Part shown: positions 22,647-48,268 of the stretch, one piece after another
Layout: every line of letters starts with the position of its first letter
Position numbering within the stretch: the first letter of the stretch is position 1
From: a virus
Virus record (IMG/VR): IMGVR_UViG_3300032103_000260
Coordinates: 23,224-87,223 of that record
Strand: one strand, 5' to 3'
Length of the DNA stretch: 64,000 nt
Made by a program: the position numbers and the translations under genes
The notes under the pieces: generated by a model
What the model saw: only the letters and a program-made list of their open reading frames with translations
Told to the model about the DNA's origin: nothing
Databases searched by the model: none

Positions 22647-23327
22647 CTAGTTATTAGTCCGAATCTTTTTGTTCAAATAATAAACTGCAACCATGCAGTA
22701 AGGTTTGTGTTTGTTTGCTGCTCGAGCTAACCACTTTGTTTTCTCTTGCTCAAAGAATGTTGTTTTCAAATTTCTGTCAGCATACTTTTTACTTTCTGCT
22801 TCAACATTTCGCTGAACTTCCAAATAAACTTCTCGCCTTGCATCTTTAAGCGATTGCATGTTGAGATTTAAAACATCATTTAATTGATTATTGAGTGCTT
22901 CATTGTCAGTGTAGATTTCTCCTTCTGAATTGTATTTGATAATTGTCTCGCAGTCTGGAGCTGTTGAAGTTGGGTTGATGCTGAAATCTAAATCTCCTTT
23001 TCTGGTATCGCAGGTTTGAAGTTTCTTCGGTCTGCCTTCGTTACCTGTGCAAGCACCCAAAAGATTAGAGTAGGTGAGTTGCAGCCCTTCATTTCTATCC
23101 TGACACAAAAAATGTTCAACTTTCATTTCGTAAGAAACAGTTTTGTCAATTTCAATCTTCTCGGGAATTCTTTTCATGCAGTAACAACAAATGTGTCCTT
23201 GCTCTGATAAAAGATTTGCTCTTAAATCGTTCATTGCAGCTAGAGGCAAATTATGGTAGTAAGCGGGTTGGTTTGCTCTGTGTTGAACCAAAGAATTTGG
23301 TTCTTGTATTTTTGTTATTTGCTTCAT
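22647..23327 (-). CDS. HNH endonuclease, PtuB/TIGR02646-like
   Basis: EQGHICCYC, VEHF, YSNLLGAC, TCDTRKG, LNLN motifs. Confidence 0.8.
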   Translation of the reverse strand: MKQITKIQEPNSLVQHRANQPAYYHNLPLAAMNDLRANLLSEQGHICCYCMKRIPEKIEIDKTVSYEMKVEHFLCQDRNEGLQLTYSNLLGACTGNEGRPKKLQTCDTRKGDLDFSINPTSTAPDCETIIKYNSEGEIYTDNEALNNQLNDVLNLNMQSLKDARREVYLEVQRNVEAESKKYADRNLKTTFFEQEKTKWLARAANKHKPYCMVAVYYLNKKIRTNN

Positions 23328-33067: not shown

Positions 33068-34123
33068 TTAATTATTATCATCATTAAAAAATGGTTTTGA
33101 ATATTCTGGTTTAATTATTTTCCAAATCATATGAGCAAACGGTTTACCTTCAAACATGTTAAATAAAATTGCTGAGTGAGATTCTTTTAAAGCATATTCA
33201 GCAAAATCTTTTTTTGACATATCATCACGATATATCTTTAAAAAAATATTATCAATATGAGTTTCCATTTCAATAAATTTATTGGTTAGTAGTTTTACTT
33301 GTTCTCTAACCCATTCATCAAATTCATCAGGTGTACGATCAAGTAATTCATTAATATCTTTACCATCACGTAAAAATTCCCATATATCTTTTGTTGATAC
33401 GTTGGTGATAATTGAATGTAAACGACAATAATCTTCAAACTTTACTTTCATACGAAAACCATTCTCATATCTTAACACGTAACCTTCTTGATTTGTAATG
33501 TTACGTGCCTTTAATTCCTTAATATCGTTAACACCATCATAGTGATTAACCAATGAAAAATCAATTTCGCGTATACCAGCATGATATTTCATAACAGCAT
33601 ATGGCATATCATATCCTGTTTCAACATCAACAACAGCTAATAATACCAGCTTTTCTTCACCATTGTAATCCACGACAATACGGTTTTCAGGATAGATTAT
33701 TTCTACCAAATAAGTCATTTCAGGATTTAAACCTTCAATGTTATAGTTATTTAGCATTGATCTACCTTTGATAGCCTGATCAGATACAAAAGAACCTCTT
33801 GTAGCTACATGCCATTCATCAGCATAGTTAAAAATAATACCCAATGAACCATCCATCTTGTCATAGACTTCAAAGTTGGTGTTTGGTATTTCTTCTGGCT
33901 TATGTTCTTCATAGTTAAAAAACTTAACAAATGGTCTTGCAACAATGTTGTATTTATCATCTATAACCATACCACGACACATCAAGGTATACTCGTTCCA
34001 TAACTTTTCAAACTGAGCCTTACGAGAATAATTTAATATCCTCAATGGCAAAGTTGGATGTTGGTTTACAAGTATGTATCCATTCTCAATTAATTGGTCT
34101 AATATAGTTCTATTTAATTTCAT
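33068..34123 (-). CDS. RNA ligase, T4 Rnl1-like
   Basis: CRG, KFFN, YDKMDGSLGI (motif I), EGYVL, MKVK. Confidence 0.9.
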   Translation of the reverse strand: MKLNRTILDQLIENGYILVNQHPTLPLRILNYSRKAQFEKLWNEYTLMCRGMVIDDKYNIVARPFVKFFNYEEHKPEEIPNTNFEVYDKMDGSLGIIFNYADEWHVATRGSFVSDQAIKGRSMLNNYNIEGLNPEMTYLVEIIYPENRIVVDYNGEEKLVLLAVVDVETGYDMPYAVMKYHAGIREIDFSLVNHYDGVNDIKELKARNITNQEGYVLRYENGFRMKVKFEDYCRLHSIITNVSTKDIWEFLRDGKDINELLDRTPDEFDEWVREQVKLLTNKFIEMETHIDNIFLKIYRDDMSKKDFAEYALKESHSAILFNMFEGKPFAHMIWKIIKPEYSKPFFNDDNN

Positions 34124-35395: not shown

Positions 35396-36226
35396 TTATG
35401 GTTTTACCTCATCATCAGATATATCTGTTGATGTTGTTGTACCATTACCACTAGTTGTTATTGATTGACTATTAGATACACCATCTAATTTAATACCATC
35501 AATGTGACTAATATTAGATGTTACATAAGTCATGATGTTATCATTAATTGCATTATATGCTGCACTACCAACAGTTGCGCTTCTATACAATTTAGTTGCA
35601 TTGCTAATGTTAGTGTAAAGAGTTGCATTACCATCAGATGTATTAATGAAATGGAATGTATTACCAAAACTAATACCCATACTATTTGCTCTTGTTGCAG
35701 CATCTTCAGTTGAACATAAGAAGATAAATTGCCAATCTTTTTTCTTCATATCACTGATAATGCCTTTAATTTGATTTTGATTATACTCATGAGATGCATT
35801 TTCTTCGCCATCAGTTACAATCAAAACAAGAACCTTATCAGGTTTTTCAGAACTTGTCATTTTATTAAACTCTTCTTTTGTTCTTGCAATAGTTCTACCA
35901 ATTGCATCATACAAAGCAGTACTACCTCTCGGTACAAAAGTTTTATCATTCAATTCCTGTACATCTTTTAAAGGAATTGTTTTCCCATCATACAATGGAG
36001 TATATTCATTGTCAAATAAGGTTACACTCATTGTTGCTTCACCTTCAGTTTCTTTTTGATCTTTTAAAAATTTGTTAAAACCACCTATCGCATCTTGTGC
36101 AACAGAACTCATTGATCCCGATCTATCAAGGATACATATGATATGGGTTTTGTTTGATTGATTTTCAACAATTTCTTCGGTAATTGTTGTTGTGACCGTT
36201 TTTGTTACTTTCTTTTTAGACATCAC
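35396..36226 (-). CDS. vWA-domain protein
   Basis: LDRSGS MIDAS motif, TALYDAIG, VTDGEEN. Confidence 0.85.
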   Translation of the reverse strand: MMSKKKVTKTVTTTITEEIVENQSNKTHIICILDRSGSMSSVAQDAIGGFNKFLKDQKETEGEATMSVTLFDNEYTPLYDGKTIPLKDVQELNDKTFVPRGSTALYDAIGRTIARTKEEFNKMTSSEKPDKVLVLIVTDGEENASHEYNQNQIKGIISDMKKKDWQFIFLCSTEDAATRANSMGISFGNTFHFINTSDGNATLYTNISNATKLYRSATVGSAAYNAINDNIMTYVTSNISHIDGIKLDGVSNSQSITTSGNGTTTSTDISDDEVKP

Positions 36227-36319
36227 TTTAATTGATTTAAAAATAAGATTATTATTAAGCTATAAAAATAGCTCATAATAAAACCTTTGTCAAGTGATTT
36301 ATGTAATTTTAATTAAAAA

Positions 36320-37051
36320 TTAGTCATCGTTAATTGAGTACTGTATTATCTCCCATCCATTGACATCACTATAAACCAATGCGGTCATTGATTCAACCCA
36401 ATCACCAGAATTATAATACATTATTTATTTTATTTTCTTTATTTCTGCATGGTGAATATGACCACAAATAATACCATCATACCCTTTTGAATTCGCTAAA
36501 TCAGCTAAGTTATTTTCAAAATCAGATATATAGTTTACTGCTTTTTTTACTTTTACCTTTATCTCTTTAGAGAAGGAATAGTATGGTTTATTCTGTAACC
36601 TTCTGATTCTATTTGCTAATTTATTAATCTTTATTAAGATTGTATATCCAATATCTCCAATTTGAGCAATCCACTTTAGTTCTTTAGTAATCTTATCAAA
36701 GATATCACCATGAATAATGTAATAACTTTTGTCACCGATTTTAATATCGTACTGATCTGTAACTGTAATATCACCTAACATTATTGGTATTACATGATCT
36801 AAAAAATCGTCATGATTACCTCTTAAGTATGTGATTTTTTTTGATTTCGATATTTTAAGAAAATATTTTAATAAATCAATTTCTTTTTTCCTTAATATAC
36901 CACCTCTTTTAATTTTCCAACCATCAATAATATCACCATTAAGAATTAATTCATCATATGAAATTGATTTAAGAAATTTTTCAACTTTTTTGGGATTTGA
37001 ATCAGTCGATCCTAAATGAATGTCTGATAGAATCACATATTTGTAATGCAT
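36320..37051 (-). pseudogene. LpxH-like metallophosphoesterase with an internal TAA
   Basis: SDIHLG, NGDIIDG, GNHD, HGD, GHIH; after the TAA at 36425-36427 the frame continues IMYYNSGDWVESMTAL. Confidence 0.7.
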
Positions 37052-37075
37052 TTAATTATATTTACCTAAATAAAT

Positions 37076-37151
37076 ACTTAAATAATTTATGTCTAATTTT
37101 AAGTATTTATTAACTTAAATAATTTATGTCTAATTTTAAGTATTTATTAAC
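37076..37151. repeat. 37-bp tandem duplication containing the late-promoter motif
   Basis: (ACTTAAATAATTTATGTCTAATTTTAAGTATTTATTA)x2. Confidence 0.9.
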
Positions 37152-37811
37152 ATGAACAAAAGATTAGTCGATATTTTCCAAAAAGTTAACAAAGTTAAAA
37201 TTAGTGAAAATGCTACAATTTTAAAGGAAAATGATGATTATATATATGATTATTTTGAAAAAAAAGACAATATAATGCGTGAAACTATTCGTGAATATAT
37301 GACATCAAAAGCAGGTGATCGTCAACCTTGGAAATTAATACCATTCGGAAGATTAAAAAAGATTTGGGAAGATACTGCTAAATTTGGTTTTGTTCGTGAT
37401 GAGAAAGGATTAGATATGATTGAAGATATCCTTGAAGAGAATATCATAAAGATTGATGTAAATAATGAAATTCTTGGTCATGCTCAATACTTACCAATAG
37501 ATGAATTAGAAGATGAAGGTTATAGTGAGAAACAATTAAAGAAAAAATATAACATGGATGGTGATGTTTATTTTGATGCACCAAATGGTCAATTAAGAAT
37601 TTCAGATTATGGACTTCAACCACTTCAAAAACATTTGATAAGTTTAAAAAAACAAACTGATCCAGTAAAAAAAATTATGTACATGGATATGATCTTAAAT
37701 GTTGTCCATCAAAGATCAGATTTGGCATCTTGGTTTGTTGAAGGTGGAAGTTCTGCATTAAGTCAATTATCTGGAACAGATGATAGACCAATATCGAACA
37801 ATTTGCTATAG
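37152..37811 (+). CDS. Hypothetical late protein
   Basis: 219-aa ORF after the AGTATTTAT motif. Confidence 0.7.
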   Translation: MNKRLVDIFQKVNKVKISENATILKENDDYIYDYFEKKDNIMRETIREYMTSKAGDRQPWKLIPFGRLKKIWEDTAKFGFVRDEKGLDMIEDILEENIIKIDVNNEILGHAQYLPIDELEDEGYSEKQLKKKYNMDGDVYFDAPNGQLRISDYGLQPLQKHLISLKKQTDPVKKIMYMDMILNVVHQRSDLASWFVEGGSSALSQLSGTDDRPISNNLL

Positions 37812-37849
37812 ACACTTTACAATTTACAGTCAATAGTAAAATGTCTAAT

Positions 37850-37933
37850 TGTACCCCAAGTAGGACTCAAACCTACACGTCTTTCGACACTTGCTTTTGA
37901 GACAAGCATGACTACCAGTTCCATCATTGGGGC
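37850..37933 (-). tRNA. tRNA-Leu(CAA)
   Basis: cttgt-CT CAA AA-gcaag, long variable arm. Confidence 0.85.
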
Positions 37934-38106
37934 ATATTTCTATACCTTTCACGTGCCATTTTTAATGCTAAATCATTTTCTTCTTTTTCTTTTTGAGTTA
38001 ACTCAATTGGAAATATCACTGATTCAGCAATTTCTTCATTAGTTAATGATGATATGCTTGGATAGTGTTTATCTATCCAATCTCTAAATTCTTTATTATC
38101 ATCCAT
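37924..38106 (-). CDS. Hypothetical protein
   Basis: 60-aa ORF within the tRNA region. Confidence 0.5.
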   Translation of the reverse strand: MDDNKEFRDWIDKHYPSISSLTNEEIAESVIFPIELTQKEKEENDLALKMARERYRNMPQ

Positions 38107-38107
38107 T

Positions 38108-38338
38108 TTATCGAACTAAGCTGCTTAGCCATTTAACAATAGGTAAAATACCATATCTAATAACCAATATGGTAAAAGCCACCATAAATATGTCAGTAAA
38201 TAACTTACCAACAAACGATAAATCTGATAGTGATGATGCGTTATGCATTATTGAATCAATATATGCAATACCAAAACAAATACCACATACAAGAAGCATT
38301 TTAAATGGATTTGTAATAAATTTAAGTACTTTATTCAT
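38108..38338 (-). CDS. Small membrane protein
   Basis: Two hydrophobic segments; late motif at 38355. Confidence 0.55.
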   Translation of the reverse strand: MNKVLKFITNPFKMLLVCGICFGIAYIDSIMHNASSLSDLSFVGKLFTDIFMVAFTILVIRYGILPIVKWLSSLVR

Positions 38339-38371
38339 AGGATTATAATTTCCTATAAATACTCAGTCACT

Positions 38372-38724
38372 TTAAATTTTAACAAATTGACCATTTTCAA
38401 TAGCTTTCCTAATCCAACGCATATACATAATCGCTTTATCAGTAGCCAATAATGTTGCTTGGCCAATATCTTCTCTATCTATTGGAAATTGATAAATTAT
38501 ATTATTAACCTTTACTATATAGTGAAAAAATCCTGTTCTATATGAATTAAAATGAACAAAATTGTTCTTTACAATATCTTTCAATTTCAATCCAGCAAGT
38601 TCTTTTCGTAAAGATTCAATTTTTCTTTGCTGCTCACCTACATTGATCTTTCTTGTATTCGATGTTTTCTTTGTTAGTACATCAATCAATTCTGTTTCAT
38701 TTTTTTCTTTTCAATCTTTCCCAT
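38372..38724 (-). CDS. Hypothetical phage protein (probable 1-nt deletion in an A run near 38700)
   Basis: MGKIEKKK(N)ETELIDV... joins ORF 38372-38689 if one A is added. Confidence 0.55.
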
Positions 38725-38745
38725 AGTTAATACTTACTTAATTTA

Positions 38746-38829
38746 AGTACCTCAGAAGGGAGTCGAACCCTTACGCTCTACGAGCAACAGATTTTAAGTC
38801 TGTCTTGTCTACCGTTCCAACACTGAGAC
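38746..38829 (-). tRNA. tRNA-Leu(TAA)
   Basis: acaga-CT TAA AA-tctgt, TTCGA T-loop. Confidence 0.85.
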
Positions 38830-38837
38830 ATATTTAA

Positions 38838-38929
38838 TGTACTCCGTGTCGGATTCGAACCGACAGTGTTCACCACATAGGGTCACAGATTTTAAGTCTG
38901 TGGCGTTTCGCCAATTTCGCCAACGGAGC
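38838..38929 (-). tRNA. tRNA-Leu(TAA), second copy
   Basis: acaga-CT TAA AA-tctgt, long variable arm. Confidence 0.85.
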
Positions 38930-39069
38930 ATATTGTTAATACTCCGCTACATAATCGTTCACTATAGATGTTTTGTTTTCTCATTTTTTATTATTTACAA
39001 AGATAAACATATTTTTTGTAATTACAAATTGATTATCTTTTTACTTCTAATGTTTTTTCAATTATTTTT

Positions 39070-39144
39070 TGTAGCGACACTTGGAATCGAACCAAGATTA
39101 CCTCTTTATGAGGGAGGCGTACTAAACCATTGTACTATGTCGCC
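39070..39144 (-). tRNA. tRNA-Met/Ile2(CAT)
   Basis: cctcc-CT CAT AA-agagg. Confidence 0.8.
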
Positions 39145-39152
39145 ATATGTTT

Positions 39153-39226
39153 TGCGGTCTATACGGGACTCGAACCCGTTTCTCCAAAGTGACAGTTTGG
39201 AAGCATACCCATAACCCCAATAGACC
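39153..39226 (-). tRNA. tRNA-Asp(GTC)
   Basis: ccaaa-CT GTC AC-tttgg. Confidence 0.85.
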
Positions 39227-39236
39227 TTTTATTTAT

Positions 39237-39307
39237 TGCTAACTATATAAGATTCGAACTTACCCTTTCTGCTCAACGCAGACTATACACCAATACACCT
39301 ATAGCTA
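39237..39307 (-). tRNA. Degenerate tRNA-like gene, possibly Gln(TTG)
   Basis: T arm GTTCGAATC present; the anticodon loop is non-canonical. Confidence 0.4.
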
Positions 39308-39402
39308 AACTTCAACCAATCATGCTGCTACAATCATGTTCAAAGTAACCTTTATTCATACCTACTGTGATAGCAGTCGGTTCAGTACGAATACCAGTTT
39401 TT

Positions 39403-39478
39403 TGCAGTGCGTATGGGATTTGAACCCACGATCTCTTGCGTGACAGGCAAGCATGTTAGACCACTACACCAACGCACT
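39403..39478 (-). tRNA. tRNA-Asp(GTC)
   Basis: cttgc-CT GTC AC-gcaag. Confidence 0.85.
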
Positions 39479-39485
39479 ATTTTTT

Positions 39486-39559
39486 TGCCGTGAATGAGGG
39501 ATTCGAACCCTAACCGCTTGAGTGATAGTCAAGAATGCAGCCATTACACCACACCCACG
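39486..39559 (-). tRNA. tRNA-Asp(ATC)
   Basis: cttga-CT ATC AC-tcaag; G discriminator. Confidence 0.7.
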
Positions 39560-39599
39560 TTTTATAATCGTTGTTTTAGGTACTACGATCAAAACCTTT

Positions 39600-39674
39600 T
39601 GCGGTGAATTAAGGACTCGAACCTCGCCACCCCATGCGCTACAGGGCATGACTGGACAATTACACTAAATCACC
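39600..39674 (-). tRNA. Degenerate tRNA-like gene (8-nt anticodon loop)
   Basis: Acceptor and T arms intact; catgc-CCTGTAGC-gcatg. Confidence 0.45.
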
Positions 39675-39745
39675 ATTTAGAAAATTCATCGAAACTGTTC
39701 GAACTACTTCAACTACATGTTTAAGTTATTCCGATTTTATTTTCT

Positions 39746-39819
39746 TGTGGAACTACAGGGACTTGAACCCTGATCCCTTGAGTGCAAGTCAAGAATTTTA
39801 GCCAATTAAACTATAGCCC
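39746..39819 (-). tRNA. tRNA-Ala(TGC)
   Basis: GGGGCTA acceptor; cttga-CT TGC AC-tcaag. Confidence 0.9.
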
Positions 39820-40240
39820 CATTTTTTTCTTTTCTATTAAGTTGTCAAATTCTAATATTAAAAAATCTAGTAACTTAATATTTCTCATTTCAAATTCATT
39901 TAGTATTTCGTCTTTACTAAATAATCCTTCACTTATTCCAATACTTCATTCTTTAACCCAAAGACCCCAATCTTTTTTTGAAGTGATAACACCTCTTAAA
40001 ATGTTTGGATGTCTTGTTACTATTGTTTCTTTGTTTTTATAAAAACCATTTTCATAATCATTGAAACAATTTTTACCATCACGACCATTCACATCAAACA
40101 CAACCTTTACTTCTGATCCGCAGAATGTAATTAGTTTTGTTCTATACATTCTCAAAAACAATTCAAAATTTCTATTGAATCTTTCTGAGAATTTTCTCTT
40201 GCGTCCAAGCTGTAATTAGTCTTTATAACTTAACCCTCAT
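39820..40240 (-). pseudogene. Hypothetical gene inside the tRNA operon with in-frame TAA and TGA
   Basis: GLSYKD*LQLGRKRKF...WVKE*SIGISEGLF in one frame. Confidence 0.45.
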
Positions 40241-40244
40241 TTTA

Positions 40245-40320
40245 TGTACCCTTGACAGGAATCGAACCTGTGACCTTCGCTTTGTAAGAACGTTGCTCTA
40301 AACCAACTGAGCTACAAGGG
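40245..40320 (-). tRNA. tRNA-Val(TAC)
   Basis: CT TAC AA loop, canonical D and T arms. Confidence 0.85.
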
Positions 40321-40330
40321 TATTTGTTTG

Positions 40331-40406
40331 TATTGCCGATGGGACTCGAACCCACACATTACAACATTGAAAGTGTTGTGCTTTATTCCAATTTAGCTAC
40401 GGCAAC
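40331..40406 (-). tRNA. tRNA-Glu(TTC)
   Basis: caaca-CT TTC AA-tgttg. Confidence 0.75.
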
Positions 40407-40440
40407 ATATTATACTTTAATTCATGTAATTAAAGTTAAG

Positions 40441-40513
40441 GTACTCGGTACGGGAATCGAACCCGTATTGCATGGTTGAAAACCATGTGTCCTAACTGTT
40501 AGACGAACCGAGC
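40441..40513 (-). tRNA. tRNA-Glu(TTC)
   Basis: catgg-TT TTC AA-ccatg. Confidence 0.85.
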
Positions 40514-40516
40514 ATT

Positions 40517-40590
40517 TGCACATGATGTAGGATTCGAACCCACGACTCAAGATTTGGAGTTTTGCGTGATACCAATTTCACCAATCATGC
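40517..40590 (-). tRNA. tRNA-Trp(CCA)
   Basis: CT CCA AA loop. Confidence 0.8.
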
Positions 40591-40593
40591 GTA

Positions 40594-40668
40594 TAGCACA
40601 GGGAAATGGATACGAACCACTATCTCCACCTTCCGTTTGGTGGCGCATTTGACTTATGCTACCCCTGT
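40594..40668 (-). tRNA. Degenerate tRNA, Arg(ACG)-like
   Basis: ccacc-AAACGGAA-ggtgg; cloverleaf otherwise recognisable. Confidence 0.45.
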
Positions 40669-40718
40669 ATGTCTTCTATGAGTTGAACATTCTACCGAGT
40701 TAAACTAAATATCCACTT

Positions 40719-40793
40719 TAGAGATATTATGGGATTCGAACCCATACCTTTCGACTCATAGATCAATACTTCAAATTTACTTCTTATCATCTA
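40719..40793 (-). tRNA. tRNA remnant (T arm intact, CT ATG AG loop)
   Basis: atgggTTCGAATcccat; the other arms are poor. Confidence 0.3.
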
Positions 40794-40810
40794 CAAGAAG
40801 TCTTATAAAA

Positions 40811-40848
40811 CAAAAAACCCGATCTTTTTTAGTGATCGGGTTTCCTGA
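40811..40848 (-). terminator. Attenuator terminator upstream of the minus-strand tRNA operon
   Basis: Transcript AAACCCGATC-actaaaaaa-GATCGGGTTT-TTTGTTTT. Confidence 0.85.
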
Positions 40849-40866
40849 TTTTTATTGTTTAATTAC

Positions 40867-40977
40867 TTAAATCAATTCTGTGTCAGAAAACCCAATACGA
40901 TCCCACTCAGCGTCTAAAACCAACGCTTCTGCTACGACTGCCATATTTAATACTAAGTTTTCCATTTGATTTAACAT
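40867..40977 (-). CDS. Leader peptide of the tRNA operon (MLNQMENLVLNMAVVAEALVLDAEWDRIGFSDTELI)
   Basis: 36-aa ORF between the promoter and terminator; its codons match the operon's tRNAs. Confidence 0.8.
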   Translation of the reverse strand: MLNQMENLVLNMAVVAEALVLDAEWDRIGFSDTELI

Positions 40978-41006
40978 TTTTATTTCTGTTTCTCTTAAAT
41001 ACGTCA

Positions 41007-41037
41007 CAAAAGTATAAAAGGTTTAAATACTTGTCAA
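41007..41037 (-). promoter_or_regulatory. Bacteroidota-type sigmaA promoter
   Basis: TTGACA...TACTTTTG (TAnnTTTG box) on the minus strand. Confidence 0.7.
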
Positions 41038-41107
41038 GTTTTTTCAAATATTTTTTTATTTCCTATATTTCTATCACAAAAATAATAATAGAAATTAATT
41101 CGTTTAT

Positions 41108-41320
41108 TTAGCGAAGACCTTTACTAAAAGCAACTTTATTCTTCATTAACCAAATAAAAAGCATAATTAAAATTATAAATAAACCAATAAATAATTCAAT
41201 TGGTTCGTTAGGATCGTCAGGCACACTAACGTTAGGAGGTTGAGAAAAACAATTTGAAGAAAACAGAATTATAAAATAAAATAACTTTCTCATATTCATA
41301 AATACACATTTTTTAGTCAT
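41108..41320 (-). CDS. Small secreted/membrane protein
   Basis: MRKLFYFIILFSSNCFS-Q plus a C-terminal TM helix. Confidence 0.5.
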   Translation of the reverse strand: MTKKCVFMNMRKLFYFIILFSSNCFSQPPNVSVPDDPNEPIELFIGLFIILIMLFIWLMKNKVAFSKGLR

Positions 41321-41720
41321 TTTTCTGTGTAAATTTAATATAGCTAAGAAATAAATTTTTTATATTTTCAGAACCAACAGGATTCATTGAATGAATAAGT
41401 ATTGTCGGTAAATTAACATTATTATCAATACAATAATTGATCAACCATTTAGCACAATCATATCCTGTTTTTTCAGCACTATCAGAATTATACATTTTTT
41501 TTATATCCTCTCTATCCTGAATTTCATAATGAATATCAGCAAGATCATGATCAAAGGAAATTATATTTGGTATCCCATGACTCTGTATGTAGCTTACAAA
41601 TTGATTATAATCTCTTACAATATCCCACTTATGTTTAAGATATTGATTATTATGTGTATAATTGAATGCATCTTGTGGCATTCTAATATCATCCAAAAAT
41701 AGATTTTTCATATATGGCAA
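41313..41720 (-). CDS. Cyclic-phosphate-processing receiver-domain protein
   Basis: LFLDDIR.P, ISFDHDL, TGYDCAKWL, IHSMNPVG. Confidence 0.8.
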   Translation of the reverse strand: MPYMKNLFLDDIRMPQDAFNYTHNNQYLKHKWDIVRDYNQFVSYIQSHGIPNIISFDHDLADIHYEIQDREDIKKMYNSDSAEKTGYDCAKWLINYCIDNNVNLPTILIHSMNPVGSENIKNLFLSYIKFTQKND

Positions 41721-41752
41721 ATGTAGTAATTAATATTTAAAAATATATAAAT

Positions 41753-44272
41753 TTAGAATGATTTTAAATTAGAAAGCAGTGTTTTTTTATAGATCATTCC
41801 CTTTTCAGTATTTAACCAATCCATTTTAAATCTTGTTCCTGTTTCATCCATAAAAACTGGTTCGCCATTATCAATCCATATTTTTAATGGTATAATCTCA
41901 CCTTCAAAATCGTAATCAAATTCAAATTCTTCAACAAATGAATTCCAGCTATAATCGGTATATTTATCAATTATCATTTGATCTGATTTTTCACTTTTAA
42001 TGTTATGAATGTTCTGTAACCCATTGATAATATCATAAACTAAACTAACCTGAAATTCTTTTGAATTTAAAATATGATCAATATCATTATTTTTTAGTGT
42101 AGGAAACAATTCAAATTCTTCTTGATTTTCAGCAATATTATTTGGTGATAATTTTTCTTTATTTAAAGCACTACCCAAACCAGCACCACCAGCAGGATCA
42201 TTGATGGCCTTGTCAACTAATGATCTTCCAAAAGTATCTGCAACTAATTTTTTGTGTGCAGTATTTTTTAATATTTTAGCTACTTGAGAAGGGTCTAACT
42301 GTCTGATGGCTGTTTTACCATACTTATCAATGATTGATAATATATCCTTCTTATTTTTAGCTTTTATAAGCTCGGCATATATTTTAAAATTTCTATTTTC
42401 ATCTTTAGGTTGATTTATTTCTTGTTTTGGTTCTTCTTCTTTATCTGATTGTTTAAAATTTTTAACTCTATCAGCATTTTCTGATTTTGCAATCATTTGA
42501 ATCTGCTGTGGAGTTAATTTATCAAATAATTCTTGTCCACTTTTTATAAATAAAGGGGTAAATATGCTGTCAGGATAATTTACTATAATAGAAAACACTT
42601 GATCATTACTAAGATCATTAATAAATGATTCACCAAAAATTGATATTATTTTCTCATATGCTTTAGTATCTCCTTGTGCATCTAATGAATATATTAATTG
42701 TAATATGTCTTTAGATTTAAAGTTTGGTAATTTACCAGCAGAATTAATTAATTTAATACTTTCTTTATCACCCAATGATATTGCTCTATTCACTAAAAGC
42801 ATAATTTCATTTTCATCAAGCAGATTTAATTTATCAACACCAATTTCTTTAATGGCATCAGACATTCTACCTAAATTATGAATGATATATGCGTATGTTA
42901 ATGTTTTATCAAAATCTTCTGGATTTCTTTCTTTAACTAATTTAGCAATAATTGTATCTCTAAATTTTTCAGGATCACTTTCAGGGTAAATTTTACGTAA
43001 ATTATCCGTATTGATCATGTAATAGAAATCATCTTCATCAACAAATTTACCTTTAAATTTATTAATTACATCTGGAATAATTTTTTTCTTATCACCAGTA
43101 TTCATTTCCATAATAATTGGTAATGCAAAACGTGGCATCTTATCATAATTCTTAGATAAGAAATCAATCATTTCTTCAGGTGTCTTGTAGAAATATTGTG
43201 CTAAGAAATATATATCTTGTAGAGATATTTGATTAACATTCTTTTTCTTTATTTCTTCAAATCTTCTCTTGTTTCTTTCTTTATTAAAATCATCAATTTT
43301 GACTTCTAAAACTTCTACTGGTACATTAATGTTTTTTAAATAAGAAATCATTGGCTGTTTACCCTTAACAATAACAGGTTCATTTAATGAATTCTGAAAT
43401 TCATATGGACTGAAATCTGGAGTAACTGTTAATCCAAGTAAATTATTTTTATCTGATACAGGATAATTATAGTTCCATATAAAAAACTGTGCATTACCAT
43501 TAGTATAATTATTCCAATGACTATTACTATAACTTATACACCAATGAGGACTACCAATTTTTTTAGATGCTTCGTAGCTATAAACTGCAGCAACAATTAT
43601 TTTTGTTTGTGGATTTGCACTAATTACTTCAGCACCATTCGTATTATTTATTTCCTCAACTTTCTTTTCAAAACTTAATTGATTAGCATATTTTTTTACA
43701 AATAAATCTATCTTATTTAAAACCTCTGAAACATCACCTTGATTACCAGTAATCAATGCAAAACCAGAATAAAAATCATTCAACTCTTTCTTATCACTTT
43801 CAGCTTGTTCAGGTGATTTACCCTCAGACTTTGATAGTCTTTCATATGATTTTATGAAGTCATCAGATAGCGATATTAATTTATCTTTTACTTCTTTTGA
43901 TATATTATTATCAATTAATTCTCTTACATTCTTTGGGAGCATTTTATATGCTTTCTGAAATTTAATATCCTTTTCAACTTCAGTTAATGCATCTTGCAAT
44001 TCAACGTAAGAATTGTATTGTGTTACTGGTTTTGGAAGTTTTTTAAACTTAGCTGGTTCTGCTTGAATTTGATTATATAATTGAACCAATTCATCATATT
44101 CAACCCTATTGTTGAACATGAAATTCGTAAATAGACCTAAATACCCAATATTTTTTTCCAATAACTTCTTCAGTTTTTGGTATCTTGAGTCACTTTCTAA
44201 TATATTTAAATCTTTAAGGATTTTCTTAGACTTAGCCACATCCTCAAATAATAATGTTTTTATGTTTAGCAT
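41753..44272 (-). CDS. Large hypothetical (probably virion-associated) protein
   Basis: 839 aa; GSPHWCIS..WNNY domain; late motif at 44294. Confidence 0.7.
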   Translation of the reverse strand: MLNIKTLLFEDVAKSKKILKDLNILESDSRYQKLKKLLEKNIGYLGLFTNFMFNNRVEYDELVQLYNQIQAEPAKFKKLPKPVTQYNSYVELQDALTEVEKDIKFQKAYKMLPKNVRELIDNNISKEVKDKLISLSDDFIKSYERLSKSEGKSPEQAESDKKELNDFYSGFALITGNQGDVSEVLNKIDLFVKKYANQLSFEKKVEEINNTNGAEVISANPQTKIIVAAVYSYEASKKIGSPHWCISYSNSHWNNYTNGNAQFFIWNYNYPVSDKNNLLGLTVTPDFSPYEFQNSLNEPVIVKGKQPMISYLKNINVPVEVLEVKIDDFNKERNKRRFEEIKKKNVNQISLQDIYFLAQYFYKTPEEMIDFLSKNYDKMPRFALPIIMEMNTGDKKKIIPDVINKFKGKFVDEDDFYYMINTDNLRKIYPESDPEKFRDTIIAKLVKERNPEDFDKTLTYAYIIHNLGRMSDAIKEIGVDKLNLLDENEIMLLVNRAISLGDKESIKLINSAGKLPNFKSKDILQLIYSLDAQGDTKAYEKIISIFGESFINDLSNDQVFSIIVNYPDSIFTPLFIKSGQELFDKLTPQQIQMIAKSENADRVKNFKQSDKEEEPKQEINQPKDENRNFKIYAELIKAKNKKDILSIIDKYGKTAIRQLDPSQVAKILKNTAHKKLVADTFGRSLVDKAINDPAGGAGLGSALNKEKLSPNNIAENQEEFELFPTLKNNDIDHILNSKEFQVSLVYDIINGLQNIHNIKSEKSDQMIIDKYTDYSWNSFVEEFEFDYDFEGEIIPLKIWIDNGEPVFMDETGTRFKMDWLNTEKGMIYKKTLLSNLKSF

Positions 44273-44376
44273 TTCATGTATAAAATAGTATACATAAATA
44301 CCATTTTAGGGGGTTAAAGTATAAAATTTTATACAGTAAAATAGTATTTATCAATATAATCTAATTAAATTAAGTC

Positions 44377-44634
44377 ATGAAAATTGAAGAAATAAGAAAA
44401 ATAATCAGAGAATCCATCATGGAATTCGCTAATCCACAACCTGCTCAACCTAAAAGAGAGAAGGAAGTTGAAGTTGCACCTGAAAAGGAAAAGGAAGCAA
44501 AACCGCTTAGAAGAGGTTTGCCTACACCAGAAAAAGCACCTGAACCAACTCCAAAAGGTCAAAAAAAGGAAGCGACAGCAACAGAAATGTCTGTAGCTAA
44601 CAAAATAGCTATTAAGTTTAATAAACAAAAATAA
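44377..44634 (+). CDS. Hypothetical late protein
   Basis: MKIEEIRKIIRESIME leader; late motif at 44343. Confidence 0.65.
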   Translation: MKIEEIRKIIRESIMEFANPQPAQPKREKEVEVAPEKEKEAKPLRRGLPTPEKAPEPTPKGQKKEATATEMSVANKIAIKFNKQK

Positions 44635-44638
44635 TCTA

Positions 44639-45646
44639 ATGAAACCACAATTAAAAGAAGTTGATTACGAAGATTTCTTAGACCCAAATTATCTTCAAGA
44701 CTTGAAAAGAAGAAGTCAGGAGATTGCCAGAGGTCAATCTATGCAGCAAGCTGGTGGTAATGTAATGAGAAATTTACCAAGAGTTAAACAAATTGAAGCT
44801 GGTCATAAAGAAGAATTAGAAAATTTAGCTATTGAATTAGTTAAAGAACAATATCCTATTATTGATAAATTTGATATTGAGATTGATGCACAATTAAGTC
44901 CTACCGTAAGAGTGGATGCTCCTGAAAGAAGAAAACCTAAAACACAACTTCCAGATGAATTTAAAAACCCTGCAAACAAAAGAAGAATAATTAATGCAAT
45001 TACTCAGGGTTCTGCAGTTTCAACTCATGGTGTCTTTCATATGCTTAAAGATAGATTAGATGCAATATACCCTAATTTGGTTAACATGTATGATGAACTA
45101 GGTAAATCAAATGATATTATTTATCATTTGGCTGATAAAAATATGTTAGCTAATATGGCTATTATGGGTAATAGACAAGGAATGGCTGCTGGTTCATCTT
45201 CTTATTCATTTGAAAATGGAAAGTATAAAATCATTGCAAGAGCACAAACATTTCCAGTATTAATTCACGAAATCACCAAAGGATTATTTGAAATCATTTC
45301 AGTTGAAGGATTCGAATTAGATAAAGAAAAAAACACTGAATTGGTTCAATATACTGATACCATCGATAGTGAATTTGATGATATCGTTAATGGTAAAGAT
45401 ATCTATGGTAAAATTAGAGATTATGTTGTTGATAATTTTGAACAATATTTAGATCGTTATCCAGATTTCTTACTATATTTCCTTCAGGAACTATATGAAG
45501 TACCATCAGAAAATAACGAATTTGTTAATTTAATTAATGGTATTTTAACAGGTCAACCAAACAAAAGGGCATTAAAAAATATTGCAGATGATGTTTTCTT
45601 TGATCTTAGAAATGACGATATTGATAGTGCATTTGAAAATAATTAA
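44639..45646 (+). CDS. Hypothetical phage protein
   Basis: 335 aa; KRRIINAITQG, FPVLIHEITKG. Confidence 0.7.
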   Translation: MKPQLKEVDYEDFLDPNYLQDLKRRSQEIARGQSMQQAGGNVMRNLPRVKQIEAGHKEELENLAIELVKEQYPIIDKFDIEIDAQLSPTVRVDAPERRKPKTQLPDEFKNPANKRRIINAITQGSAVSTHGVFHMLKDRLDAIYPNLVNMYDELGKSNDIIYHLADKNMLANMAIMGNRQGMAAGSSSYSFENGKYKIIARAQTFPVLIHEITKGLFEIISVEGFELDKEKNTELVQYTDTIDSEFDDIVNGKDIYGKIRDYVVDNFEQYLDRYPDFLLYFLQELYEVPSENNEFVNLINGILTGQPNKRALKNIADDVFFDLRNDDIDSAFENN

Positions 45647-45665
45647 AAAATTTATAACAATTTGC

Positions 45666-45695
45666 TTGACTTTAACGTATTTAGTTGTAGATTTA
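45666..45695 (+). promoter_or_regulatory. Putative host-type promoter of the plus-strand tRNA operon
   Basis: TTGAC...TAGATTTA (one mismatch to TAnnTTTG). Confidence 0.5.
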
Positions 45696-45711
45696 CATAA
45701 AATTTAAAGAA

Positions 45712-45795
45712 ATGAAAAGAGTTATGTTCATAGTACCGCAACCCCAACATCAGCCACAAAAGCTGTTGCTTGGAGATACTATGTACGTTTCCTAA
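45712..45795 (+). CDS. Leader peptide of the tRNA operon (MKRVMFIVPQPQHQPQKLLLGDTMYVS)
   Basis: 27-aa ORF with a PQPQHQPQ run, before Pro/His/Gln tRNAs. Confidence 0.8.
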   Translation: MKRVMFIVPQPQHQPQKLLLGDTMYVS

Positions 45796-45823
45796 GATAA
45801 TATAAACTTAGGACGTTATATTA

Positions 45824-45860
45824 AGGAAAACCCAAGCACGTAAAAATGCTTGGGTTTTTT
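45824..45860 (+). terminator. Attenuator terminator upstream of the plus-strand tRNA operon
   Basis: AAAACCCAAGCA-cgtaaaaa-TGCTTGGGTTTT-TT. Confidence 0.85.
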
Positions 45861-45868
45861 GATTTTAC

Positions 45869-45962
45869 AGGGTTTGCAGGAGTATGGTTAAACTGGCTGG
45901 TCTTGGAAACCAGTGATGGCACAAAGGCGTTGTCATCCGAGGGTTCGAATCCCTCAACCCTG
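45869..45962 (+). tRNA. Class-II (Ser-like body) tRNA with a TGG (Pro) anticodon
   Basis: ctggt-CT TGG AA-accag, long variable arm, G discriminator, 6-bp acceptor. Confidence 0.6.
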
Positions 45963-46073
45963 AGATGATTAATTACAGATACCTGCACGTGGTAATCATT
46001 GCATGATAATATTAGAAATTAATATTATTAACTAAATTCTGTAAGTTCTTTGAAATTATTAGTATTGAAAATT

Positions 46074-46148
46074 CGAGTAGTAGCGTAGTCAGGTCAACGT
46101 GCTTGCTTTGGGAGCAAGAGATCAAAGGTTCGAATCCTTTCTACTCGA
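46074..46148 (+). tRNA. tRNA-Pro(TGG)
   Basis: cttgc-TT TGG GA-gcaag; C1 start. Confidence 0.9.
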
Positions 46149-46150
46149 CT

Positions 46151-46224
46151 GTGTTTGTAGCTTAATAGTCGAAAGCACATGATTGTGGCTCATGAGATGG
46201 GGGTTCGATTCCCCTCAAACACCA
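46151..46224 (+). tRNA. tRNA-His(GTG)
   Basis: catga-TT GTG GC-tcatg. Confidence 0.85.
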
Positions 46225-46231
46225 ACTATAT

Positions 46232-46305
46232 TACTTTATAGTGTAACGGTTTAGCACGACACCCTTTGAAGGTCGTAGGTTTGGGTTCAAATCCTAATAA
46301 AGCAA
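46232..46305 (+). tRNA. tRNA-Gln(TTG), imperfect stems
   Basis: CT TTG AA loop. Confidence 0.65.
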
Positions 46306-46311
46306 CAATAT

Positions 46312-46383
46312 TGTCGTGTAGTATAATGGTTAGTACTTCAGACTTTGACTCTGAAGGTGATGGTTAGAGTCCATCCACGACAT
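46312..46383 (+). tRNA. tRNA-Gln(TTG)
   Basis: tcaga-CT TTG AC-tctga. Confidence 0.8.
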
Positions 46384-46396
46384 CTTAATTTTATAT

Positions 46397-46469
46397 GGTG
46401 TTTGTGTTGTAATGGTAACATACCATTCTGTGAAAATGGAGTAGACGGATCGTAACCGTCCTTACACCC
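46397..46469 (+). tRNA. tRNA-His(GTG), divergent
   Basis: ccatt-CT GTG AA-aatgg. Confidence 0.6.
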
Positions 46470-46475
46470 TTAATA

Positions 46476-46549
46476 TTCTCAAGTCGTATAATGGCTATTA
46501 TTTCTTACTCTGAATAAGAGGATGTTGGTTCGATTCCAACCTTGAGGAC
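46476..46549 (+). tRNA. tRNA-Gln(CTG)
   Basis: tctta-CT CTG AA-taaga. Confidence 0.8.
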
Positions 46550-46782
46550 TTCTTAAAATATTCAGAAATATTTTTACAACCATCATAAACCTTCAAGAAC
46601 ATTTCTCTACGTTCTTGAATAGATGCAGTGCCTTTCATTATTAAACCAACACCACCCTCTGGTAATTGAGATATTTCACAAAGGTTATCAACATTATGAT
46701 TACAAAACATGTAAAATAAATAACCAGCCAAACCATCTGGCTGAAGTTCTTTTTCAATTCTTTCTATTTTTTCTTGTGTCAT
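46498..46782 (-). CDS. Hypothetical protein (3' end overlaps the last tRNA antisense)
   Basis: 94-aa ORF. Confidence 0.45.
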   Translation of the reverse strand: MTQEKIERIEKELQPDGLAGYLFYMFCNHNVDNLCEISQLPEGGVGLIMKGTASIQERREMFLKVYDGCKNISEYFKKSSRLESNQHPLIQSKK

Positions 46783-46960
46783 CTCTAATCAAGATTTGCT
46801 TTATAGTAATTATTGCTTTAATTTTATTTTGCCAACTACCAGCATTTGCAAGATTAATCAAATCCTGTTCTCTATTACCTGTAGGTTTTGGTGGTGTCTT
46901 TGCCATATTAAAACTTATCAAAATTTTTGGTAATGTAAATAAATAAACCAATAATTGCAA
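46754..46960 (-). CDS. Hypothetical protein
   Basis: 68-aa ORF. Confidence 0.4.
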   Translation of the reverse strand: MQLLVYLFTLPKILISFNMAKTPPKPTGNREQDLINLANAGSWQNKIKAIITIKQILIRDDTRKNRKN

Positions 46961-46982
46961 AAGGTAATAGCAATTTTTTCAT

Positions 46983-47492
46983 TTATAATAAACTTATAAT
47001 TGTTGAAGTCACATTTTTTAACCCTATTTTAACGTAATGAACATCAAAATAGTTAAAACATCTGATCACTTCATTATCAATTTCAATAGCACCTTTTTCA
47101 TCTTGATAACGTCCTTCTTGTCTGTATTCAACTTCACGTTCCAAGTATACATTTAAGTTATAATATTTGTTGAATTCTTTTAAGACAAAGCGTGAAATTC
47201 TTTATTATCTTCTATCTTCACCCTTACCAGAATAAACAATTGAATTAAATAATGGAGCATCAGTAACAAGGTAATCAATCTTACCATTTAATCTAAACAT
47301 TCTATGATGTTGATTTGCAAAAATCCAAACTTGATTTTCCATTACACGATATGACTCATCCCATGTCAAGTCTTTAGCGAATTCAGTTACAAGTTCACAA
47401 CTATGTTTTTGCTTTTTTAAGTCAGCAAATACCTGCGCTGCAGTTACAGATTTACCAGTTCCCGGCCCCCCAAAAATATTGATTACTTTCAT
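46983..47492 (-). pseudogene. NadR/AAA_28-like P-loop kinase, disrupted
   Basis: GGPGTGKS, TDAPL; a GAAGATA duplication gives TAA TAA, then the frame resumes FVLKEFNKY..YRQEGRYQ. Confidence 0.65.
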
Positions 47493-47746
47493 GAACCAAT
47501 ATAGTGAATTTAAAATAAAAAATAAAAGCTCTAACAATTTTATATTTGTTAGAGCTTTTAAATATCTAAATACATACCCTTATTTTTAATATCTACCCAT
47601 ATACGATAATCGACTTATCATAATTTAGGATGTGGAATCACCCTTCATATAAGGGTTTTAAGAAATTATTCCTGTTAAATCAGACCTAACTTATTTTTAT
47701 TTTATAAGCATTAATTTCTTTAATATAAATACGTTATTGATTGAAA

Positions 47747-48268
47747 TTACATTTTCCAATCTAATAATAATTTTTTATTTCTGTAATCAATAACAGCATT
47801 TGCCATAGTAAAATAATCTGAACCAATTATACCTAAAATTTTTAAACCATTTTCAGAAAAAGATTCAATTAGATCACTCATATCAGCACCATATGCTTTT
47901 AATAATAAAGGATTTTTTTCATGTAAAATCACACAATTTTTTAGTGAATATCTGTTTTTTTTACCACCTAAACCAACTAATTCTATATTAGAGGATATTG
48001 TATTAAAACCATATTTTTCTGCTTGAGAAATATCAAATAATGTGAATGCTGCGCCAGTATCAATAAGTAGATTTGCTTTTTTATCGTTGATAATTACTTC
48101 AATGTAAAACATGTGATGATGATTTTTTAATGGTATTGATTGCGGGACATCATCGACCGTAAACGTTTGTGCTGATAACTTTTTTGTTGTTAGGGCTAAT
48201 ATAAAAAAAATTATAATGATCCTAACAAATTTCATAAAGAACAAACATAAATACTTTATAAGTATCAA
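47747..48268 (-). CDS. Retropepsin-like aspartyl protease, secreted
   Basis: LLIDTGA, GIIGSD; signal peptide ending LSA-Q (likely start MKFVRI). Confidence 0.8.
   Translation of the reverse strand: MILIKYLCLFFMKFVRIIIIFFILALTTKKLSAQTFTVDDVPQSIPLKNHHHMFYIEVIINDKKANLLIDTGAAFTLFDISQAEKYGFNTISSNIELVGLGGKKNRYSLKNCVILHEKNPLLLKAYGADMSDLIESFSENGLKILGIIGSDYFTMANAVIDYRNKKLLLDWKM

Follow-up and report, generated by a model that had tools for sequence, protein, structure and literature searches.

Within a 64,000-nucleotide stretch of phage DNA (hereafter the window; positions 23,224 to 87,223 of IMG/VR record IMGVR_UViG_3300032103_000260), two arrays of tRNA genes are each preceded by a promoter-like site, a short open reading frame (ORF) and an intrinsic terminator. 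We designated these assemblies units A and B. Together with at least three more such units in the related phage genome G001, they are probably leader-peptide transcription attenuators that gate tRNA arrays. A first-pass annotation, written by a model from the nucleotide sequence, had proposed control of this kind for array A. That interpretation was supported in silico, and each of its sequence-level predictions that could be tested was borne out.

Unit A lies on the minus strand. The layout described at first pass, in which promoter boxes are followed by a 36-codon ORF (40977-40867) and a strong terminator, was confirmed, with the terminator placed at 40844-40806 (stem GAAACCCGATC, 40844-40834, with GATCGGGTTTT, 40824-40814, then a T tract). 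The promoter-like site showed 88% mean pairwise identity across five homologues. Its promoter role is put forward as an inference from sequence because the motif class was not enriched genome-wide; TTG-N17-21-TAnnTTTG occurred at 29 sites in the genome and at 25-32 in shuffles. Leader ORFs A and B both begin about 25 nt downstream of their promoter-like boxes, and in unit A this interval is A-rich. An in-frame ATG at 40965 is the leader A start kept in all homologues. A 19-nt spacer separates leader ORF A from the terminator hairpin, and array A begins about 140 nt beyond the terminator. The terminators that stand between leader and tRNA genes in units A and B have GC-rich stems of 11-12 bp followed by T tracts. 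Where about 16 tRNA genes had been counted in array A, ARAGORN and the Rfam tRNA model both gave 13, the extra tRNA-like stretches being fragments. Their order is an ACG-containing odd tRNA, Trp, Glu x2, Val, Ala, Asp x3, Met, Leu(UAA) x2 and Leu(CAA). Scattered among these genes are small ORFs, three of which precede Leu(CAA). Because leader A samples all eight amino-acid types, distal Met and Leu included, we infer that the transcription unit extends to these genes.

The codon match was assessed by scanning the window genome (178,249 bp) in six frames for codons decodable by the array anticodons. With the U34 tRNAs (Val-UAC and Ala-UGC) counted as reading entire four-codon boxes, leader A codons 12-27, already singled out at first pass as matching the downstream tRNAs, formed a run of 16 array-A-decodable codons. 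This run was the longest in the genome; the next longest were 11 and 10. Under strict wobble, 63% of leader A codons were cognate compared to a background of 28%, a share reached only by the top 0.3% of the 751 small ORFs (the null set of ATG ORFs of 20-45 codons collected in each genome). Maximal-scoring segments that tolerate mismatches were tried and rejected: leader A ranked 2nd and leader B 3rd genome-wide, with the G001 leaders C and D outside the top five. Because these segments did not put the leaders first, uninterrupted runs and the small-ORF null were adopted. Two further features cited at first pass hold as observations and carry little weight by themselves. All six Leu codons of leader A are TTA or TTG, which is weak alone since 69% of the genome's Leu codons are TTR (P ~0.11), and the lack of Lys among the 36 codons (P ~0.03) is likewise a weak argument on its own.

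The tRNA that had been called Arg-like is indeed present at the head of array A (40596-40668, minus strand), but it has an 8-nt anticodon loop, AAACGGAA, without U33, and ARAGORN labelled it '?(Arg|Pro)'. Its counterpart in the relative L125 (L125:1399-1469) has the loop AAACGAAC, also without U33, and was labelled '?(Arg|Ser)'. This tRNA could decode four bases, be a variant that evades nucleases or be a gene in decay. In G001, array A is without the ACG-containing tRNA and TGT stands in the leader, whereas the window and L125, which have that tRNA, carry CGT; leader and tRNA content thus change together in this one case.

Unit B, on the plus strand, showed the same relationship. PQPQHQPQ (8 codons) of leader B was the longest Pro/His/Gln codon run in the 178-kb genome in six frames. 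Both of the genome-longest cognate runs thus defined, A and B, lie directly upstream of the matching array and on the correct strand.

A blastn search with the region and both leaders against 50,697 phage records returned tRNA matches and noise only, and no cultured relative at the DNA level. Homologues were found via the flanking protein and the leader peptide (for leader A, a 46-amino-acid query in the GTG-extended frame) in IMG/VR, JGI, Logan, ENA and one NCBI metagenome-assembled genome contig. A degenerate QPQHQPQ pattern, also tried against IMG/VR, was set aside after 119 unrelated matches, none of which lay beside Pro/His/Gln tRNAs. In the alignment of five leader A versions (A3), the 48-nt run had a mean pairwise nucleotide identity of 97% and a single synonymous change overall, while identity was 61% in the 5' untranslated region and 48% in the ORF tail and spacer. 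The leader A homologues in four other contigs keep the frame and differ in start, tail and stop position, and a frame, an ATG and a stop are retained in all homologues of leaders A and B. Conservation of the run and the helices, with variable starts, tails and stops, therefore argues for selection on codons and helices rather than on a protein. In short, strain-ambiguous contigs from other metagenomes (wetland, freshwater and sediment), the leaders are 97-99% identical, compared to 81-93% for the flanking genes. A look for the region among RNA sequencing runs found it in none. Of the five leader B versions, three keep PQPQHQPQ. A distant version, next to a flanking protein 60% identical, encodes a peptide beginning MKTIANIQHPQQHQPQGQMLGN and retains QHPQQHQPQ, the TGCTTGG segment and the terminator; the tRNAs behind it are Pro, Pro, His, His, Gln and Gln.

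G001 (246,768 bp) exceeds the window genome in its number of tRNA clusters and has 36-38 tRNA genes. In addition to leaders A and B, it has three further clusters, each with its own promoter-like box, small ORF and terminator (clusters C, D and F, Table 1). The expectation that leader codons would follow tRNA content in relatives was thus upheld, as each of the three blocks has a matched leader. In a 5x5 matrix of leaders against clusters, the codons of a leader's own cluster were the most enriched for every type, two- to four-fold over background, and most other clusters were at or below background. When the five independent leader types were compared to the small ORFs of each genome, the Fisher-combined p was 9e-7 to 2.5e-6. 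The amino acids of the cluster were present in its own leader in 8/8 and 7/7 cases for A, 3/3 for B, 3/3 for C and 7/7 for D, including Trp, Cys and His. The Leu codons of leader D are CTA, CTG and CTT, in a cluster with Leu-UAG and Leu-AAG, whereas those of leader A are TTA and TTG (Leu-UAA, Leu-CAA); this contrast is suggestive only (Fisher p = 0.06). Leader F contains GTGAAGATCAG, a perfect complement of the terminator arm CTGATCTTCAC.

Folding provided a second line of evidence. The minimum-energy fold of full-length leader A (-48.5 kcal/mol, z = -3.1) has the 3:4 terminator and, pairing GGAAAACUUAGUAU (40963-40950) with GUAUUGGGUUUUCU (40898-40885), a long 1:2 hairpin (regions 1 to 4, Table 1). 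The pairing of GGGTTTTCTGA (40893-40883) with TCAGGAAACCC (40848-40838), reported at first pass to span 11 bp, proved exact, one G-U pair included. A second helix reported with it, GATCG/CGATC, is not conserved, and one relative has AATTG there. Given the 1:2 + 3:4 fold and the 2:3 complementarity, unit A has the four segments of a classical attenuator. The 11-bp 2:3 antiterminator helix of unit A was 98% paired in five sequences, and two pairs were altered on both sides, TGA/TCA to TAT/ATA, in two of them; 6 of 500 shuffles equalled this covariation, and slid controls were at most 64% paired. In the unit A terminator helix, pairing was complete (100%) across the five sequences and one change, GATC/GATC to GATA/TATC, was compensatory; the 1:2 helix had 96% of cells paired without compensatory change. 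The unit B antiterminator (7-8 bp) was 97% paired in five sequences but invariant, and is uninformative on covariation for that reason; the unit B terminator stem has a compensatory change, AAG/CTT to TAG/CTA, in L002. In the minimum-energy fold of unit B, the sensing codons pair with a segment just upstream of CCAAGCA. Antiterminators of units C, D and F were predicted in folds. The covariation changes point in the right direction, though five sequences are a small sample.

Constrained folds were computed with the leader up to the base before region 4 and with 28 nt masked (-15 to +12) around the A site of a modelled ribosome. In all five leader types, region 3 was predicted to pair with region 2 until a given A-site codon and to be freed beyond it. 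The behaviour expected at first pass was thus reproduced in the model, a ribosome within the run leaving the antiterminator intact and one past the run freeing the terminator arm. The last permissive codon was 23-24 in unit A (matched run 12-27), 14 in unit B (9-16), 13 in unit C (3-13), 26 in unit D (2-26) and 11 in unit F (Tyr at 6-8). These positions lie close to the run ends, and the runs therefore end about where a stall would no longer signal. In these models, the coincidence is one that attenuation predicts and that none of the rival explanations would account for. The terminator is present in every full-length equilibrium fold, which means that switching, as in trp, has to be kinetic.

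We propose that a unit-specific promoter would start the transcript and that a ribosome would enter the short leader ORF, meeting in its middle a run of codons served by tRNAs encoded beyond the terminator. If decoding were quick, the ribosome would cover region 2, region 3 would pair with region 4, and the resulting terminator would leave the tRNA genes silent. If any sampled tRNA were scarce or uncharged, the ribosome would stall in the run, the 2:3 helix would form and polymerase would enter the array. The outcome would be one demand-driven negative feedback loop on decoding capacity for each tRNA block. On this account the leader would be translated and stalling would alter read-through. 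Demand from codon usage, host shut-off, defences that cleave tRNAs and amino-acid starvation would each stall the ribosome and are candidate triggers; to name anticodon nuclease or starvation as the trigger is speculation. We lean, with less assurance than for the units themselves, towards a general and undescribed principle: that large phages hold their tRNA supply as a bank of feedback loops, each block behind a codon-matched attenuator, which would replace exactly the decoding capacities that fail, possibly through codon-usage mismatch, host shut-off or tRNA-cleaving defences.

Table 1. Features of units A and B in the window (window coordinates) and the three further leader units of G001
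Feature	Coordinates	Strand	Details
Promoter-like site, unit A	41007-41037	-	TTGACA 41037-41032, 17-nt spacer, TACTTTTG 41014-41007; read directly
Leader ORF A	40867-40977	-	36 codons + stop; encodes MLNQMENLVLNMAVVAEALVLDAEWDRIGFSDTELI
Candidate sensor run A	40897-40944	-	Codons 12-27, MAVVAEALVLDAEWDR; each codon decodable by a downstream array tRNA
Region 1, unit A	40950-40963	-	GGAAAACTTAGTAT; pairs with region 2 in full-length minimum-energy fold
Region 2, unit A	40883-40898	-	GTATTGGGTTTTCTGA, leader A codons 27-32; alternative partner of region 1 or region 3
Region 3, unit A	40834-40848	-	TCAGGAAACCCGATC; antiterminator 3' strand, overlaps terminator 5' arm
Region 4, unit A	40806-40824	-	GATCGGGTTTT + T tract; terminator 3' arm, forms in minimum-energy fold
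tRNA array A	37851-40668	-	13 genes; ARAGORN and Rfam tRNA model
Promoter-like site, unit B	45666-45695	+	TTGACT, 16-nt spacer, TAGATTTA; kept in four close homologues
Leader ORF B	45712-45795	+	27 codons, MKRVMFIVPQPQHQPQKLLLGDTMYVS; candidate sensor run PQPQHQPQ at 45736-45759
Region 2, unit B	45767-45773	+	TGCTTGG; complementary to CCAAGCA in terminator 5' arm
Terminator, unit B	45827-45861	+	AAAACCCAAGCA, loop, TGCTTGGGTTTT, T tract
tRNA array B	45868-46549	+	Pro x2, His, Gln x2, His, Gln(CUG); 7 tRNAs; ARAGORN and Rfam
Cluster C (G001)			Thr-UGU, Arg-UCU, Arg-ACG, Ile-GAU; leader MKNIITITQITRIRGTKTSSNGFIV (begins MKNIITITQITRIRGTKT; ITR motif)
Cluster D (G001)			Phe, Ile-UAU, Ser, Gly, Gly, Ser, Asn, Leu-UAG, Leu-AAG, Cys; leader MKFLNLNNNPSNLNSNFISGNIFLGTCQEKSGYSLDFGG (MKFLNLNNNPSNLNSNFISGNIFLGTC...; FLNSIGC)
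Cluster F (G001)			Tyr-GUA then Leu-GAG; leader MITIKKYYYKKSSKVKISNTIS (...KKYYYKK...)

Several observations weigh against this account. Strict wobble splits the leader A run at GTC, GTT and GCT into pieces of at most 5 codons, and acidic or low-complexity protein stretches outscore the leaders when mismatches are allowed. Leader C carries ATA codons, for which the tRNA (Ile-UAU) belongs to cluster D. The case of leader F is weak, with three Tyr codons (p = 0.02-0.2), and this leader ignores its Leu(GAG) tRNA. Strict maintenance is made less likely by L001, in which leader B is degraded to PQPKHQLQ and the array is still Pro/His/Gln. The homologues number only five per leader, and several are closely related. 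Within array A, TTG-N19-TATCTTTG at 38998-39027 (minus strand) precedes the Leu(UAA) tRNAs by about 70 nt; the motif occurs at chance frequency in the genome, and it could be an internal promoter that removes the distal Leu tRNAs from leader A control. Truncated leaders of units A and D, folded with no ribosome present, form the antiterminator by preference from the outset, and the model suggests that termination in these units may require active translation past the run. Unlike trp-type superattenuation, the default without translation in A and D may be read-through.

A third tRNA cluster of the window genome also belongs among these points. It encodes Tyr, Tyr, Met and Leu at genome positions 163378-163911, outside the window, and TTGACA-N17-TACATTTG stands directly upstream of its first tRNA (the cluster with its box runs from genome position 163336). 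This box, TTGACA-N17-TAC(A/T)TTTG, is the same as that of unit A. A leader ORF and a terminator were looked for at this cluster, and neither was present. Control is therefore per block and not universal, and the cluster would serve as a natural unregulated control.

The small ORFs might be independent genes or non-coding transcripts with their own terminators, the arrays using other promoters or leak-through and the codon match being coincidental. A stand-alone small gene would also show a promoter, a short ORF and a terminator; array A contains the promoter-like motif at 39027-38998, and the third tRNA cluster manages without a leader. Such coincidence is nevertheless very unlikely, given that the genome-longest cognate runs are located exactly at the two arrays, that five leader types each fit their own cluster (combined p ~1e-6), that the run and alternative helices are conserved while peptide tails, starts and stops are not, and that the homologues have no conserved promoter between terminator and first tRNA. 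The leader peptides could also be functional products, such as small regulators of translation or tRNA-modifying enzymes, and the core MAVVAEALVLDAEW of leader A is identical in five genomes. We find this scarcely credible, however, since the N- and C-termini vary freely, the five leader types share architecture and not peptide similarity, and the distant leader B differs in peptide and keeps only its Pro/Gln/His run. Synonymous sites are frozen too, beyond what selection at the protein level needs.

Frozen synonymous sites would fit a leader RNA that senses tRNAs directly in the manner of a T-box, with codon-like triplets pairing with uncharged tRNA anticodons and no translation. The run has almost no synonymous change, as for an RNA element, and direct sensing of tRNAs is known from T-box leaders. 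Against direct sensing, which we judge highly improbable, no T-box or other Rfam leader family matched at E <= 1, and 8 to 25 different 'specifiers' in one run would be without precedent. At least ten leaders keep the run in frame with an ATG and have a stop soon after region 2, despite indels, and the run ends coincide with the last antiterminator-permitting stall under a ribosome-sized mask. A fixed dampener or timer is improbable as well, although we would not place it quite so low. It would act by constitutive partial termination or by phage-protein antitermination, with translation only modulating folding. Phages commonly time genes by antitermination, and because the ribosome-free folds of A and D favour the antiterminator, any translation would terminate. 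What a dampener leaves unexplained is that each leader is composed of codons that its own array serves, those for the rare Trp, Cys and His included. Leader-peptide attenuation thus remains the reading that we prefer.

Other features of the two units were recorded. In array A, a tRNA-Asp with anticodon ATC (A34) lies at 39487-39559 (minus strand); the three Asp tRNAs of L001 all have the GTC anticodon and none has ATC. The stretch between the unit A terminator and the first tRNA (40680-40800, minus strand) contains tRNA-like fragments, including a T-arm-like GGTTCGAATCC, and a sub-threshold match to YrlA (Y RNA-like) at 40674-40760; it is much shorter in L001. In unit B, a small hairpin, CCUAAG...CUUAGG (45792-45818, plus strand), overlaps the leader stop and may be a pause or spacer hairpin; its core CUAAG/CUUAG was found in 5/5 homologues. 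The first array B tRNA (45868-45963, plus strand) has the Pro anticodon TGG and a long variable arm, and it is kept in L002 and L004. A relative in one freshwater metagenome has 513 extra bases at 45635-45644, between the flanking 335-aa gene and the leader B promoter. In G001, a tRNA with anticodon CTA at 230500-230572 (L128:17001-17073) was labelled 'Pyl' by ARAGORN and is possibly an amber suppressor; two Cys tRNAs follow it, with no obvious leader.

Just downstream of array A, a T4 Rnl1-type RNA ligase (Pfam RNA_lig_T4_1) is encoded at 33068-34123 (minus strand); it fits a context of tRNA damage and proves nothing. A 208-aa ORF at 36425-37051 (minus strand) appears metallophosphoesterase-like by eye only. 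Downstream of its own array A, L125 has Metallophos and RNA_lig_T4_1 Pfam matches and also NUDIX and NAMPT genes. This neighbourhood of RNA ligase, phosphoesterase, NUDIX and NAMPT genes may be a module for tRNA repair and NAD.

The phage has a T4-type portal and terminase and a G+C content of 29%, and comes from freshwater and wetland metagenomes. Judged by the portal protein, the cultured phages closest to it are Microcystis phage Mel-JY01 (39%) and Flavobacterium phage immuto (35%), which have one and three or four tRNA genes, respectively. Inspection of immuto at the level of its annotation revealed no such leader units. The promoter boxes resemble TAnnTTTG, the -7 motif of Bacteroidota. 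A Bacteroidota host was considered on this basis and not relied on, the indication being weak with the motif at shuffle frequency. A comparison of units A and B from the window with C, D and F from L128 showed a GTATTTA element shared by the leader promoters. It precedes the TAnnTTT(G/A) box by 4 nt in B, C, D and F and by 9 nt in A, which suggests that the tRNA units use promoters of one class.

The presence of tRNA genes in phage genomes is the subject of a decades-long debate, in which codon compensation and the replacement of tRNAs lost to host defences or shut-off are the leading proposals. The defence view has been put forward in recent work on phage tRNAs as counter-defence, whose abstracts mention no control of the kind proposed here (PMC10264068, PMC11555353). 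In full-text literature searches, no account of tRNA genes controlled by leader-peptide attenuation came up for either phages or cells, in line with the first-pass statement that none was known. If our reading is true, this would be, to our knowledge, the first case of leader-peptide attenuation on tRNA genes and hence of direct feedback on decoding capacity. The phage would treat these tRNAs as an inducible reserve and not as a constitutive supplement, and the codons in each leader would tell which shortages it expects, so that the question becomes testable. The units would be compact, modular sensors of specific tRNA availability that could serve as reporters or natural biosensors.

As the units described here would, T-box riboswitches couple tRNA status to terminator read-through, and they also control genes of the translation apparatus, the aminoacyl-tRNA synthetases. 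Unlike T-boxes, which bind one uncharged tRNA directly and without translation, the phage units have an ORF, many codons and no T-box motif; the T-box model (Rfam RF00230) had no match at E <= 1 in 36000-48000 of the window. An Rfam 15 scan of the same interval gave tRNA matches and sub-threshold noise only, with no curated leader family. The 1:2 / 2:3 / 3:4 alternative helices are those of the trp, his, leu and pheA leaders (trpL, hisL, leuL and pheL), and unit B resembles trpL in having its sensing codons within region 1. The phage units have no sequence or Rfam-model similarity to these leaders. Classical attenuators govern biosynthesis, transport and aminoacyl-tRNA synthetase genes, and the genes downstream of the phage leaders are tRNAs; the kind of gene regulated is the one point at which the units depart from the classical scope.

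Multivalent attenuators are known from enterobacteria, where the ilvGMEDA leader contains Ile/Val/Leu codons and the thr leader contains Thr/Ile codons. Like the ilv and thr leaders, the phage units combine a promoter-proximal short ORF, a codon run for several amino acids and a terminator opposed by an antiterminator that uses the terminator 5' arm, with the regulatory codons sited so that a stalled ribosome would leave the antiterminator free. The phage leaders differ in sampling up to eight amino acids, mostly 1-4 times each, in place of long repeats of one or two. They are also viral and form a parallel set, one per tRNA block. Finally, while the ilv and thr leaders control biosynthetic enzymes, the phage units would control tRNA genes, and their feedback would act on decoding capacity rather than on amino-acid supply.

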